Shown: positions 1,107 through 6,520, counted from the first letter of the stretch. The stretch is 64,000 bases of DNA from Candidatus Omnitrophota bacterium (GCA_015232565.1 JADFZK010000004.1:11907-75906), one strand, 5' to 3'. Notes: generated by a model from the sequence alone, not told the origin. Numbers and translations are program-made.

Positions 1107-2549
1107 CTATACTCTGGGAGCTTTACCGATCATATAGAAATCGGAAGACTCCAAATGATCATACTCACCATTAAGGATACGCTCACAACCCTCGATATTG
1201 TCTTCAATAGGGACGTACTCACCCTTTTTACCGGTGAAGACCTCGGATACGGAAAAAGGCTGGGTCATAAAATTGTAGAGTTTTTCAGCGCGCTTATAGA
1301 TCAACTGGTCCTCTTTGCTCAACTCATCGATACCAATAACCGCCACCACGCGCTTTAAAGCATTATGTTTATTAAAATGCTGAATAACCCGCTGGGATAC
1401 TTCATAGTGACGGCGGCCCACCACCGCGGTATCCAGGTTGGTACAGGAACTTTGCAAAGGATCAATGGCCGGATACATACCGCGCTGTACCAGGTCGCGC
1501 GAAAGCACGATATTGCCGTCCAAAGTGGCAAAAATCGCCACTACCGCCGGATCGGTCATGTCGTCTGCCGGCACATACACCGCCTGCATAGCGGTAATGG
1601 ATCCGCCGCCGTCCACCGAACGGATACGTTCCTGCACAGCATTAACCTCGGAAGACATAGTTGGCTGATAACCGGTTTCGGCCGGAACACGTCCCAGCAA
1701 GGTGGATATCTCCTGCCCGCCCTGGATAAAACGATACAAATTATCCATGAACAAAAGCACGTCCTTGTTCTTGGCCACCAGATATTCCGCCATGGTCAGC
1801 CCGGCGTTCACGACTTCGGCGCGCGTACCCGGCGGCTGGTCCATCTGGCCAAAAGCGAGCATAACTTTGTGCAACAAATTGCTTTCATGCAATTCATAAT
1901 AAAGCTCATTGCCCTCGCGGATGCGTTCTCCGATGCCGGTAAAAACGCACGCACCGCCATGGGCTTTAACGATATTATGGATCAGTTCCAGAATGATAAC
2001 CGTTTTACCGCAACCGGCGCCGCCTATAACCCCGGTACGGCTACCCTTAACCAGCGGATAAAGCAGATCCACATATTTAATCCCGGTCTCCAGAACCTCG
2101 GCGATCTCGCGCCGTTTACTGGTCAGGTCAAAGGTCACTTCCACAGTAGGCTTGCGGATCGGGATCAGGTTCGGGCAGTTTTCAAAAGGGCCGCCATTGT
2201 CCAGCGGTCGACCTGAAGTATCCATAACCCGGCCGAAACAACCATCACCCACCGGAATAGCAATGGGTTTGTACGTACAAAAACAAGGCGCGTTCTTTTG
2301 CAGGTTCAAAGTCTCCTGAAGGGAAATGCAACGGACCACTCCCTGGCCCAAATGCTCGGCACATTGCAGGGTGATCTTCTTGCCTTCAAAAGTCATGGTC
2401 TCAATACAGTCATAAACCGCCGGCGAAGACTCGCCCTCGAAGAATTTAATATCCACGACCGGACCTTGTACCGCCACTATACTCGCAGAAGGGCGACGGT
2501 CAACCGGTGCGCTGGCAGTCTTGGTTTTTTCCACAGCAGTTTCAGCCAT
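1107..2549 (-). CDS. atpD: F-type ATP synthase beta subunit
   Basis: 480 aa; collinear with bacterial beta subunits ([10 protein letters not shown]-loop variant, [13 protein letters not shown], DELSEEDxL-like [16 protein letters not shown] motifs). Confidence 0.9.
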
Positions 2550-2572
2550 ATCAAAATTCCCTTATAGGTACA

Positions 2573-3430
2573 TCACTTGGAAACCGACATCATTCTCGAG
2601 GAGAAAACTTCCCGCAGACTCTTGTCGATATCATTCTTACGGGCCTTGCGATATTTCATTTTATACAACTGGCCCTCTTTTTTCACGTTCGTCAAACTGG
2701 TATCCAGCTGTTGCGACTGAGCCGAGACCGCCGCAATACTGGTATCGAACATCATTTCATAGATCTTGGTCGAAGTCCATAAATTCGCCAAATAACCGAT
2801 CACATCCAAAGGGTCTGATTCTTCAATAACATGAGTGAACTGTTCGACCTTTTGCTTTTGCTTCTGAAAGATAAACTCGCACGGCAAAAGCTTAACTACC
2901 CGAGCCTTAACGGTCTGCAGATCCTTTGGCCAGGGATAGACTACCAGCACCTTGCCAATCTTGCCGGTCAACACCTGCTCAACCAGATAATCCTTGAGCA
3001 TGACCGAGGTCTCGTACATCCCGCATTCGGCGATCTCTTCAAAGGTCCGGGTATTTTTGACCCCCATCATGGCCAGTTTCATGACTCCCTTACGGCCGAC
3101 GGTCACGAACTGGGCGTCCGGATGTTTGTCCCGCTCATCGAGCGCCCGGACAATGACCTTATTATTCAGGTCGCCAATGAAGCCCTCTTCGGAAGTAATA
3201 ACCACGATACAAACATTAGGATTCGTGTTCGCCACCAGCGGATGGGCGATCTCGGTGTATTCGAGCAACCGAAAGAACTCGGCAAAAGATTCGCCGAAAC
3301 GCTGGAAACCGCCGCGCCGGGCAAAAAGGTCGCGAAATTTCATATCCGCGATATCCTTGAGGACTTGCACCAGCTCAACAAGGTCGCGCACTTCGATCAT
3401 TTCCCGTTTTACCTTATTGGCCTTTCCCAT
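2573..3430 (-). CDS. atpG: F-type ATP synthase gamma subunit
   Basis: 285 aa; size, position between b/delta and beta, and N-/C-terminal helical segments are typical of gamma; 23-nt gap to atpD. Confidence 0.75.
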   Translation of the reverse strand: MGKANKVKREMIEVRDLVELVQVLKDIADMKFRDLFARRGGFQRFGESFAEFFRLLEYTEIAHPLVANTNPNVCIVVITSEEGFIGDLNNKVIVRALDERDKHPDAQFVTVGRKGVMKLAMMGVKNTRTFEEIAECGMYETSVMLKDYLVEQVLTGKIGKVLVVYPWPKDLQTVKARVVKLLPCEFIFQKQKQKVEQFTHVIEESDPLDVIGYLANLWTSTKIYEMMFDTSIAAVSAQSQQLDTSLTNVKKEGQLYKMKYRKARKNDIDKSLREVFSSRMMSVSK

Positions 3431-3442
3431 AGTGCCTTAGGG

Positions 3443-4722: not shown

Positions 4723-4737
4723 GGCTTTATCTCTTTG

Positions 4738-5013
4738 TTAGTTTCCGGGTGTTACGGCGGCTATCTTTTCTTCGATCATTATGTTGCACTCATTCGCAAA
4801 GAACCTGACCACCCCACCCTTGACCGGCAAACGCTTTTCCCAGTTGATAATAATTTCACCGGCCACTATCCCGATCAACGGGTAATGATAGGCCAGCAAT
4901 TCATATTCACCGCGATCCCCGGTAATAAAAACACTGCTGACCTCTTCTTCCAGGATCAAACGCTTGGCGCTCAGGATCACACAGCGAAAATTGCCTTTAT
5001 ACTTGGATGCCAT
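4738..5013 (-). CDS. atpC: ATP synthase epsilon subunit, short form (N-terminal beta-sandwich only)
   Basis: 91 aa; beta-rich sequence with GEYELLAYHYPLIGIVAGEI resembling the epsilon N-terminal domain; position within the atp cluster; lacks the usual C-terminal helical hairpin. Confidence 0.5.
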   Translation of the reverse strand: MASKYKGNFRCVILSAKRLILEEEVSSVFITGDRGEYELLAYHYPLIGIVAGEIIINWEKRLPVKGGVVRFFANECNIMIEEKIAAVTPGN

Positions 5014-5032
5014 TATGCCTGCCCTCGCCCAC

Positions 5033-6520
5033 TCACGACTCTTCCTGGCCCGCCGCCTTAACCCGCTTGCGGATATCAGAAATAAGGCCGGTTATAACTT
5101 CATCCAGCAATTTCTCGATCTCGGTATCAAGTTTCTTTTTCTCACGCAGAAGCGTCATTAATACCGGTTTATTCTTCTGCGTATAGGCCAGACACTCGGC
5201 CTGAAAAAGGTTTACCTGGTCAATCGTCAGGTCATTCATATATTTTCGATTAAAAGCATAAAAGATGACCACCTGCATTTCCAGGCAAACCGGAGCATCT
5301 TTATCCTGGCGCAGAATATGAGTCAGGATCAACCCGCGTTTTAATTTCTGCTTCATTTCATCCGATTGCCCGGAAGTCTTCAGCTTCGACAACCGCAATA
5401 ATTCACGATACTGCAAATATTCCAAACGCAAGGGCCCCGACAAGGTCTTGATGGCCGACCATTGCACTTTCGATCCCACGCGCGAAACCGAAAGCCCCAG
5501 GTCGAGCGCCGGCTTCTGGCCTTCGCCGAAGATCTGGGCGCTTAATAATATCTGGCCGTCGGTCATGGACACCAGGTTCGACGGTACAAAAGCGGTCAGA
5601 TCGCCTTCCAGGATATCGACGATCGGGAAAAAGGTCATCGAACCGCCGCCTTTTTCCTTGCTCAAATAACAGGAACGTTCGATCATTTTGGAATGCAAAT
5701 AGAAAATATCGCCCGGATACGAATCGCGTCCCGGCGGGCGGCCCAGCAAAAGCGAGATCTCACGATAACACCAGGCATGTTTGGTAAAGTCATCAAAACC
5801 TATAAAAACATCCTGTCCGCGCTGCATGAAATACTCGCCCAGGGAACAAGCCACATATGGCGCCAGATATTGCTGACCGGGCGTGGATGAAGCCGAAGCC
5901 GAAACAATCATGCTGTAATCAAAACACTTATGATCCTTAAAAAGCTGAACTACCTTGGCCAAAGAAGCGCGGGCCTTACCGATACCGCAATAAATACAGA
6001 TCACCCCGGTATTGCGCTGATTTATAATAGTATCGGTTACGAAGGTGGTTTTGCCGGTCATCTTATCGCCGAGGATCAACTCACGCTGCCCGCGGCCGAT
6101 TGGTATCATGGCATCCAAAACTTTGATCCCGGTTTCCAGCGTTTTACTAAGGGGCTGACGATCCAGGATCATAGGTGCGTCCGGAAAGATCGGGGCCATG
6201 ATCTCCGGCGTTATTGGCCCCAGACCATCCAGCGGTTCGGCCAGAGGATTAACAATACGCCCGATAAAACTTTTGCCTGCTGGAGTATAAAAAGGCTCGA
6301 TTGAAGCGATCGCCTTCTGCCCCGTGCGGATCTTCTCAGCTTCTTTAATAATTAGAACCTGGGTCTCAAATTCATTGAACCCCACGACCAAACCCAAAGT
6401 ACCAAACCCGAAACGGATCAATTGGCCATTAATACAATTCTGAAAGCCGGTCACGATAACGATACAACCGCGAATGGCCTTAACAATACCTTCTTCTGTA
6501 TATTGCAGTTTAATGCTCAT
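5033..6520 (-). CDS. atpA: F-type ATP synthase alpha subunit
   Basis: 495 aa; N-terminal beta-barrel domain, P-loop GDKMTGKTT (variant of GDRQTGKT), alpha-type nucleotide-binding domain; start ATG overlaps the TGA stop of the upstream gene (ATGA). Confidence 0.85.
   Translation of the reverse strand: MSIKLQYTEEGIVKAIRGCIVIVTGFQNCINGQLIRFGFGTLGLVVGFNEFETQVLIIKEAEKIRTGQKAIASIEPFYTPAGKSFIGRIVNPLAEPLDGLGPITPEIMAPIFPDAPMILDRQPLSKTLETGIKVLDAMIPIGRGQRELILGDKMTGKTTFVTDTIINQRNTGVICIYCGIGKARASLAKVVQLFKDHKCFDYSMIVSASASSTPGQQYLAPYVACSLGEYFMQRGQDVFIGFDDFTKHAWCYREISLLLGRPPGRDSYPGDIFYLHSKMIERSCYLSKEKGGGSMTFFPIVDILEGDLTAFVPSNLVSMTDGQILLSAQIFGEGQKPALDLGLSVSRVGSKVQWSAIKTLSGPLRLEYLQYRELLRLSKLKTSGQSDEMKQKLKRGLILTHILRQDKDAPVCLEMQVVIFYAFNRKYMNDLTIDQVNLFQAECLAYTQKNKPVLMTLLREKKKLDTEIEKLLDEVITGLISDIRKRVKAAGQEES

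Follow-up and report, generated by a model that had tools for sequence, protein, structure and literature searches.

An F-type ATPase gene cluster without a neighbouring subunit a gene in a predicted type II secretion-like operon of Candidatus Omnitrophota

The window, as we call the whole stretch of DNA analysed here, comprises 64,000 nucleotides (nt) from a metagenome-assembled genome (MAG) of a Candidatus Omnitrophota bacterium (GCA_015232565.1, JADFZK010000004.1:11907-75906), and the subject of this study is a cluster of F-type ATPase genes close to its beginning. Seven close-packed open reading frames (ORFs) on the minus strand, spanning positions 1107-6520, encode alpha, epsilon, c, c', b/delta, gamma and beta (Table 1), five of which (alpha, epsilon, c, gamma and beta) are named directly by Pfam or NCBIfam models. 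An initial annotation of this DNA had read the same seven genes in the same order, and each of them was recovered where it had been placed. It had also proposed that the cluster is translationally coupled to the operon of the neighbouring giant gene. In the window, the stop of p443, the gene between the giant gene and the cluster, does overlap the alpha start by 4 nt (6517-6520), but this is not a general feature, as the overlap is found in 4/29 related loci and the median gap at the p443/alpha junction is 17 nt. At the other end of the cluster, the gene for a GspE/PilB-type secretion ATPase starts at 1087, 19 nt past the beta stop and not 18 nt as first counted.

Table 1. Genes of the ATPase cluster and of its flanks in the window, listed along the minus strand.
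Feature	Position	Strand	Evidence or remark
p206	46669-47289	-	T2SS-like gene upstream of the giant gene
Secretin	45098-46672	-	Pfam Secretin 3.4e-48
TPR protein	44234-45097	-	Between the secretin and FGE-sulfatase-domain genes
Two paralogous FGE-sulfatase-domain proteins	40872-44143	-	Pfam PF03781
Giant secreted repeat protein, 10,962 aa	7855-40743	-	N-terminal signal peptide and NW repeats
p443, 443 aa	6517-7848	-	121-member family, no Pfam domain
F1 alpha-like subunit, 495 aa	5033-6520	-	Pfam ATP-synt_ab 1.6e-67 and ATP-synt_ab_C
Epsilon, N-terminal beta-sandwich domain alone, 91 aa	4738-5013	-	PF02823 / ATP-synt_DE_N, residues 9-81
Subunit c, 73 aa, hairpin	4501-4722	-	PF00137 / ATP-synt_C 5e-07
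c', 76 aa, diverged c paralogue	4267-4497	-	BLASTP to c; no Pfam match
b/delta fusion, 252 aa	3443-4201	-	PF00213 (OSCP), residues 164-235 on profile positions 95-167
Gamma, 285 aa	2573-3430	-	PF00231 / ATP-synt 4.7e-29
F1 beta-like catalytic subunit, 480 aa	1107-2549	-	Pfam ATP-synt_ab 9.9e-70; NCBIfam atpD
GspE/PilB-type secretion ATPase, 5' part, runs off the window	1-1087	-	Pfam T2SSE 8.8e-59, MshEN 2.6e-17

The arrangement was compared across a close-locus set of 43 members, made up of 41 loci from Omnitrophota MAGs (one genome per species) and two metagenome loci. The order giant gene, p443, alpha, epsilon, c, c', b/delta, gamma, beta and GspE is constant in 43/43 as far as the contigs reach, and the median intergenic gaps amount to 3-22 nt at every junction, including those from the giant gene to p443, from p443 to alpha and from beta to GspE. 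No terminator-like site was found between the genes on the coding strand of the window. Further downstream, the relatives encode GspF, a Peptidase_MA_2 protein, pseudopilins, GspJ- and GspK-like proteins, a PilM-PilN fusion and PilO. Since genes of a type II secretion system (T2SS) lie on both flanks, with the secretin upstream and GspE, GspF and others downstream, the ATPase genes and the giant gene are predicted to be members of a T2SS-like operon, placed between gspD and gspE. Many of the MAGs that bear the locus are labelled 'uncultured Planctomycetales bacterium' (L005, L018, L019, L021, L025, L027, L031, L034-L036, L039-L041 and L043), which is probably a taxonomic mislabel.

The gamma of the window has a 100% identical NCBI entry from a Candidatus Omnitrophica MAG. 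Relatives of the gamma subunit number in the hundreds, all of them from Omnitrophota. An exhaustive comparison of the window gamma with 1.84 billion representatives gave 765 matches at E≤0.001, among which the gammas of at least 50% identity form a single representative at 520 bits, followed by a gap down to 195 bits and a tail of 22-38% identity. None of the ten next-best gammas (28-38% identity) passes the model of canonical gamma, and one is again named as Omnitrophota. A search with the most divergent gamma of the close clade was saturated at identities of at least 70% and yielded no new lineages.

The context of the deep lineages was read for six informative members (L044, L046, L048, L049, L050 and L052). 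At gamma identities of 22-34%, the same secretion context is kept, with a single c gene and with subunit a absent from the locus. Four of the six (L044, L046, L048 and L050) carry a large ORF homologous to the C-terminus of the giant protein, a p443 homologue (24-30% identity, E 1e-44 to 1e-60), alpha, epsilon, a single c, b/delta, gamma and beta, after which GspE, GspF, pseudopilins and PilMN follow. In L052, whose gamma is 22% identical to that of the window, the order is epsilon-c-b/delta-alpha-gamma-beta-GspE (6745-12403). This is nearer to the canonical c-b-delta-alpha-gamma-beta and points to a move of alpha to the front of the cluster in the main clade. L049 (4192-13746) shows the p206-secretin-TPR trio directly followed by epsilon-c-b/delta-gamma-beta-GspE; the 20 kb of this locus contain neither a giant gene nor p443 nor alpha, and tblastn with alpha matches beta only. 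Alpha hence appears to travel with the block of giant gene and p443.

Two further observations concern L052, the most distant cluster examined. Its P-loops differ from those of the window, reading GDRVTGKS in alpha and GGAALGKS in beta, and a response-regulator/GGDEF gene lies in front of its cluster, in keeping with a control by cyclic di-GMP alongside the MshEN and PilZ domains of GspE. A stand-alone PilZ-domain protein is also encoded in the window (61849-62343, minus strand), beside an AsmA-like gene.

The proteins of the cluster differ in how closely they follow the canonical family models. Alpha and beta pass the respective NCBIfam models, with 506.5 bits for alpha (atpA TIGR00962; cutoff 484.45) and 533 bits for beta (atpD TIGR01039; cutoff 462.85), and both are nearest to canonical bacterial F1 in the PDB at about 450 bits; for beta, about 456 bits to canonical F1 beta compare with 331 bits to the G1-ATPase beta of M. 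mobile (9io5_A). Below the canonical equivalog cutoffs, which are given in brackets, are gamma (TIGR01146) with 75.4 bits (194.45), epsilon with 26.4 (67.25), c with 18.6 (43.95) and b with 17 (65.5). The models of the N-ATPases (alt_F1F0) are failed by alpha (467.9 bits; cutoff 750.5), beta (451.4; 752) and gamma (17.5; 282), and although the best NCBIfam match of the b/delta protein is the long b subunit of N-ATPases (TIGR03321, E=1.3e-11), its 44.8 bits stand against a cutoff of 224.7. As neither the gene order nor the accessory genes AtpR and AtpQ nor a c subunit with two glutamates are found here, we rejected membership in the N-ATPases. The same was decided for the Mycoplasma type 2/3 ATPases, all four models of which remain below cutoff (alpha: MMOB1660 379.4 bits, cutoff 600, and MSC_0619 283.1, cutoff 520; beta: MMOB1670 401.2, cutoff 850, and MSC_0618 384.4, cutoff 570), and for the FliI family, as the best scores with FliI/SctN models (164 bits for alpha, 196 bits for beta) are far below the cutoffs of 380-620.

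The variant P-loops pointed out in the initial annotation, GDKMTGKT in alpha and GGAGCGKT in beta, are both present, and GGAGCGKT is invariant in 38/38 orthologues. A conservation check of the catalytic residues, which had been recommended at the same time, covered 38 beta and 31 alpha orthologues and found P-loops, catalytic Glu and Arg, Walker B and Arg finger conserved. The Arg-finger motif of alpha (GLSVSRVGS) is kept in 31/31 sequences, the catalytic motif of beta in 38/38 and its Walker B motif in 36/38, and other signature motifs are likewise retained. Since the catalytic motifs of alpha and beta are kept, the complex is predicted to be an active ATPase under strong purifying selection. 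We accordingly rejected a degenerate or pseudogenised remnant, given the invariance of all catalytic motifs and the perfect synteny.

Outside the catalytic core, the subunits show derived losses. Alpha is devoid of the first ~20 residues of canonical alpha, and its PDB alignments begin at chain residue ~23; in the canonical enzyme these N-terminal residues bind the N-terminal domain of delta. The b/delta protein consists of an N-terminal transmembrane (TM) helix, a coiled coil of ~130 residues and a delta (OSCP) C-terminal domain, and the N-terminal domain of delta is missing, so that the alpha N-terminal helix and the delta domain have both been lost. That epsilon is reduced to its N-terminal domain, as first annotated, is borne out by PF02823 being its sole domain and by the absence of the C-terminal helical domain in 34/34 orthologues (88-101 aa). 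In canonical enzymes, this C-terminal domain inhibits hydrolysis. Gamma has strongly diverged from canonical gamma. The predicted complex is thus composed of an alpha3beta3 head, a shaft of gamma and the epsilon N-domain, a membrane oligomer of c (plus c') and a stalk formed by the b/delta protein with its single TM helix and delta C-terminal domain.

A second protein of related build is encoded in the window at 49433-49783 on the minus strand, ~43 kb upstream of the ATPase cluster. This miniature b/delta-like ORF of 116 aa has an N-terminal TM helix and a domain similar to the C-terminal part of delta/OSCP (PF00213, E=3.4e-9, profile positions 99-168) as well as a faint FliH match, and there is an overlap with the adjacent S41 peptidase and GT2 (glycosyltransferase) genes. 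BLASTP detected no similarity between this ORF and the b/delta protein.

No protein of the cluster is more strongly conserved than subunit c (77-97% identity), which has an invariant RNPSA loop and a glutamate in the second TM helix (FVEA, within FVEAIAIV). Its first TM helix has neither the GxGxGxG motif nor a Glu or Gln. The window retains the TM2 glutamate, and so do 41/44 sequences overall; it is replaced in 3/44, namely by Val in L041 (7140-7358) and by Gln in L050 (4714-4929) and L052 (7223-7435), while the beta motifs are intact in these loci. The change in L041 amounts to a single nucleotide, so that a sequencing error is possible. Because the carboxylate is replaced, canonical ion translocation is predicted to be impossible in these three lineages. 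A third c-like gene in which the carboxylate is absent was also noticed in L041.

The c and c' proteins align by BLASTP over 68 ungapped residues with 28% identity (E=7e-11) and with the TM2 glutamates matched. Among orthologues of c', this glutamate is not conserved. The c' gene is absent from the deep lineages L044-L052, which have a single c gene. As no deep-lineage locus examined carries c', we regard it as a predicted duplication specific to the clade of the window.

A gene for subunit a is the conspicuous gap in this set. In agreement with the initial annotation, Pfam gave no match to PF00119 (ATP-synt_A) in any real ORF of the 64 kb, and the sole genuine multi-TM ORF of the window encodes a DUF2304 protein. 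Hydrophobic ORFs on the plus strand were considered as a hiding place and rejected, since they are antisense shadows of the giant-gene repeats without a Pfam match. Likewise, no a-like ORF was found within ~10 kb in any of about 50 related loci, deep lineages included. The initial annotation had associated a pure housekeeping role with a gene order that is standard for the whole lineage and with atpB, the gene for subunit a, lying directly downstream of the PilB gene or elsewhere as the sole copy. The order has indeed proved standard for this ATPase family; the position next to the PilB gene is not occupied by subunit a.

The two proteins encoded directly upstream of alpha belong to the same conserved block. 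The giant protein is composed of an N-terminal signal peptide, which is its sole hydrophobic segment, a head of ~330 aa, ~798 NW repeats and a helical tail of ~236 aa. The repeat unit has 13 residues, and this spacing is observed in 792/797 intervals. Only 2 Cys occur in the 10,962 aa, and the GC content of the gene is 0.39-0.45 compared with 0.50-0.55 in the flanks. Every locus that extends as far as its C-terminal region shows homology there. The p443 protein begins with a signal peptide or anchor, continues with two tandem modules of a beta-sandwich and a helical bundle, and ends with a C-terminal TM helix (AlphaFold2 model, mean confidence pLDDT 83). The family has 121 members, essentially all from Omnitrophota; no Pfam domain and no informative fold match of the model were obtained for p443, and it shows no similarity to the giant protein of the window itself.

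A connection between the two comes from L052, where a large ORF (2-4633) carries an in-frame p443-like module with TM anchor at its end. The fusion point directly follows 'SWFEW', which matches 'TWFESEE' at the C-terminus of the giant protein in the window. This Rosetta-stone fusion, seen in one lineage, implies a joint function of p443 and the giant protein, and it indicates that p443, encoded just before alpha, would be a membrane-anchored base or partner of the giant fibre.

Directly upstream of the giant gene, two proteins of ~540 aa contain partial domains of the FGE-sulfatase (formylglycine-generating enzyme-like) type, and these may modify or bind the fibre. Farther away, a 1,088-aa ORF without Pfam match (56166-59432, minus strand) stands beside a glycine-cleavage operon (gcvT, H, P1, P2, lplA).

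What, then, is the function of an F-type ATPase in such surroundings? The initial annotation had left two options, a housekeeping ATP synthase with atpB elsewhere or an ATPase module co-opted by the flanking machinery. We lean towards the second and consider that the complex is a dedicated component of a T2SS/type IV pilus (T4P)-like apparatus, together with the giant protein and p443, and probably not the ATP synthase of the cell. This is supported by the presence of the ATPase within the secretion context in about 50 loci, down to a gamma identity of 22%, by the lack of subunit a at every locus and by the three losses of the carboxylate. The available parts of an earlier survey of the phylum arrive at the same 'non-respiratory' conclusion (Seymour et al., 2023). 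As a part of the secretion apparatus, the ATPase would run in the direction of ATP hydrolysis, and gamma/epsilon together with the c oligomer would be turned without canonical ion translocation between a and c. The work, or else an anchoring or gating function, could be passed on to the secretion and fibre machine, perhaps by membrane contacts among c, the TM helix of b and the TM helix of p443.

Several points weigh against a dedicated secretion component. Gene order is the sole ground for a mechanical coupling of the ATPase to secretion, and the L049 locus, where alpha is missing, illustrates that one locus need not encode the whole module. The high conservation of c and the retention of its glutamate in 41/44 sequences are what one would expect of a working ion-binding site that needs an a-like partner. 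The search for atpB covered the loci and the window, so that the gene may lie elsewhere in the genome, and precedents for an isolated atpB exist, Helicobacter among them. Published K02108 counts covered three genome clusters, a number too small to decide about atpB. For one Omnitrophota genome cluster, the available part of a published KEGG orthology list contains K02111 and K02112 and no K02108 (Seymour et al.; PMC10066038), which is weak evidence. Absences based on KOfam models mean little in this case, as the divergent gamma, c and b proteins of the cluster are themselves missed by such models.

The strongest alternative is, in our opinion, a complete ion-translocating F1Fo with subunit a encoded elsewhere, which could be the ATP synthase of the cell or an ATP-driven proton pump that keeps up the membrane potential and whose position among T2SS genes would reflect no more than co-regulation or lineage history. 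It can draw on the passing of the atpA and atpD equivalog thresholds by alpha and beta and their proximity to canonical bacterial F1 in the PDB, on the glutamate and RNP loop of c (41/44 sequences, 77-97% conserved) and on a search for a that covered the loci and the window. Yet a is absent from about 50 loci in which the other subunits are always present, the carboxylate has been lost in three lineages, and the delta N-domain, the alpha N-helix and the epsilon C-domain are gone. Moreover, the placement in the secretion operon does not change down to 22% gamma identity, which would be difficult to account for if there were no functional linkage, and V/A-type subunits are reported in most complete Omnitrophota genomes. 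We therefore regard a complete F1Fo as a doubtful explanation that still deserves consideration.

If the ATPase is indeed a component of the secretion apparatus, one could speculate further that it represents a new class of secretion-associated rotary motor, devoid of subunit a and of ion translocation, in which contacts of c, the b TM helix and p443 extrude, spin, tension or retract the fibre or a pseudopilus. We put this forward as a tentative and rather unlikely extension. Rotary F-type ATPases are textbook ion-coupled machines, and the extension, if true, would provide the first F-type c-ring that serves as a mechanical rotor instead of an ion turbine. Apart from this extension, an F-type ATPase that keeps the c oligomer, has no a gene in its locus and is fixed within a secretion operon would mean that the recruitment of rotary ATPases for the movement of proteins or filaments took another path besides that of the type III secretion ATPase. 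It would also offer a testable component for the deployment of megadalton surface fibres by the ultra-small, probably predatory or parasitic Omnitrophota.

Less likely are roles similar to those of FliI/FliH/FliJ or of the gliding ATPases of Mycoplasma. In the first case, the alpha3beta3-gamma head on its b/delta tether would dock at the export platform and unfold, release or gate the giant substrate, with c acting only as a membrane dock and the complex not as a freely rotating motor. In the b/delta fusion, b is followed by delta in the layout that has reportedly been proposed for FliH, the cluster is located in a secretion operon beside the gene of a 1.1 MDa substrate, and the carboxylate is dispensable in some lineages. 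However, with its normal N-terminal signal peptide, the giant protein should cross the inner membrane by way of Sec, and T2SS substrates are handled in the periplasm, beyond the reach of a cytoplasmic F1 head. Together with FliI/SctN scores far below the cutoffs and a conservation of c that argues against a passive dock, this makes gating of the FliI kind improbable.

A homologue of the Mycoplasma type 2/3 F1-like ATPases, which would drive gliding on host cells, is very improbable, since alpha and beta score far higher with atpA and atpD (506 and 533 bits) than with the Mycoplasma models (379 and 283 bits for alpha, 401 and 384 bits for beta), beta is closer to canonical F1 (~456 bits) than to the G1-ATPase of M. 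mobile (331 bits), and epsilon, c and b/delta, all present here, are reportedly absent from the Mycoplasma clusters. In its favour stands the tree in the available parts of Seymour et al. (2023; PMC10066038), in which alpha clusters with the Mycoplasma type 2/3 ATPases. This published affinity is not mirrored in our hidden Markov model and pairwise scores, which place canonical F1 clearly nearer; the alpha tree of that study may have been affected by long-branch attraction.

Compared with the canonical F1Fo (atpIBEFHAGDC), the cluster shares alpha and beta subunits that pass the family models with all catalytic motifs, a recognisable gamma and epsilon N-domain, a c hairpin whose TM2 glutamate is retained in most sequences, and b-like and delta-like segments. 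It differs by having no a in the locus, the order alpha-epsilon-c-c'-b/delta-gamma-beta, no separate delta and a position in a secretion operon, and by missing the alpha N-helix, the delta N-domain, the epsilon C-domain and the glycine-rich TM1 motif of c. Two c-type proteins per cluster, one of which is able to lack the carboxylate, are reminiscent of heteromeric c rings such as those of the Acetobacterium woodii F-ATPase (c1/c2/c3) and the V-ATPase (c/c'/c''), although a shared ring is putative here and c' is a lineage-specific duplication absent from deep relatives.

With the N-ATPases, the cluster has in common that there is no separate delta gene and that a long b ends in a delta-like C-terminus. 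N-ATPases are organised as atpDCQRBEFAG and possess subunit a, AtpQ and AtpR, their c subunit has a Glu in both helices and the Na+ motif ESTxxY, and they have been argued to hydrolyse rather than synthesise ATP (Dibrova et al., 2010; PMC2881411). Here, by contrast, a is missing from the locus, as are AtpQ and AtpR, c has no TM1 glutamate, and there are no extra membrane ORFs besides c'.

Conceptual precedent for a relative of the rotary ATPases within a secretion machine is provided by FliI-FliJ-FliH, including a b/delta-like tether in the form of FliH; the flagellar ATPase is, however, a homohexamer without alpha/beta alternation, and it has no c oligomer and no epsilon. The Mycoplasma type 2 (gliding G1-ATPase) and type 3 enzymes are F1-derived as well, have a non-bioenergetic surface function and are encoded apart from the housekeeping enzyme; unlike the present cluster, theirs are reportedly not located beside T2SS/T4P genes.

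Closest of all are the loci already described in the same phylum. In their survey in Nat Microbiol, Seymour et al. (2023; PMC10066038) proposed, in the parts available, a 'symbiotic', non-respiratory F-type ATPase occurring in every class of the Omnitrophota and that lies within 10 kb of type IVa pilus (T4aP) genes in 57/66 contigs. Because this co-location of ATPase and T4aP genes has been published, the locus type has to be considered as known since 2023, and the window is an instance of it, being part of an Omnitrophota genome with T4aP/T2SS genes within 10 kb (GspE at a distance of 19 nt) and with an alpha/beta cluster beside T2SS/T4aP genes. T2SS-like loci beside giant genes of Omnitrophota have also been reported, with the ATPase unmentioned (West-Roberts et al., 2023). 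Among 176 complete Omnitrophota genomes, alpha/beta were found in 125 and canonical gamma in 30, and V/A-type subunits occur in 70-99% of Gorgyraeia outside Pluralincolimonadales (bioRxiv 10.64898/2026.06.07.730766).

The evidence in the available parts of Seymour et al. (2023) consists of alpha/beta phylogeny and co-location, and a description of subunit anatomy was not found in those parts. Relative to them, the present analysis adds the retention of c and c' without a, the fusion of b with the delta C-terminal domain, the truncated epsilon, the fixed place of the cluster between giant gene/p443 and gspE, and the carboxylate losses. Overall, it extends the known locus type to an ATPase with no a gene in any locus, an optional carboxylate and p443 as the candidate anchor of a giant fibre.

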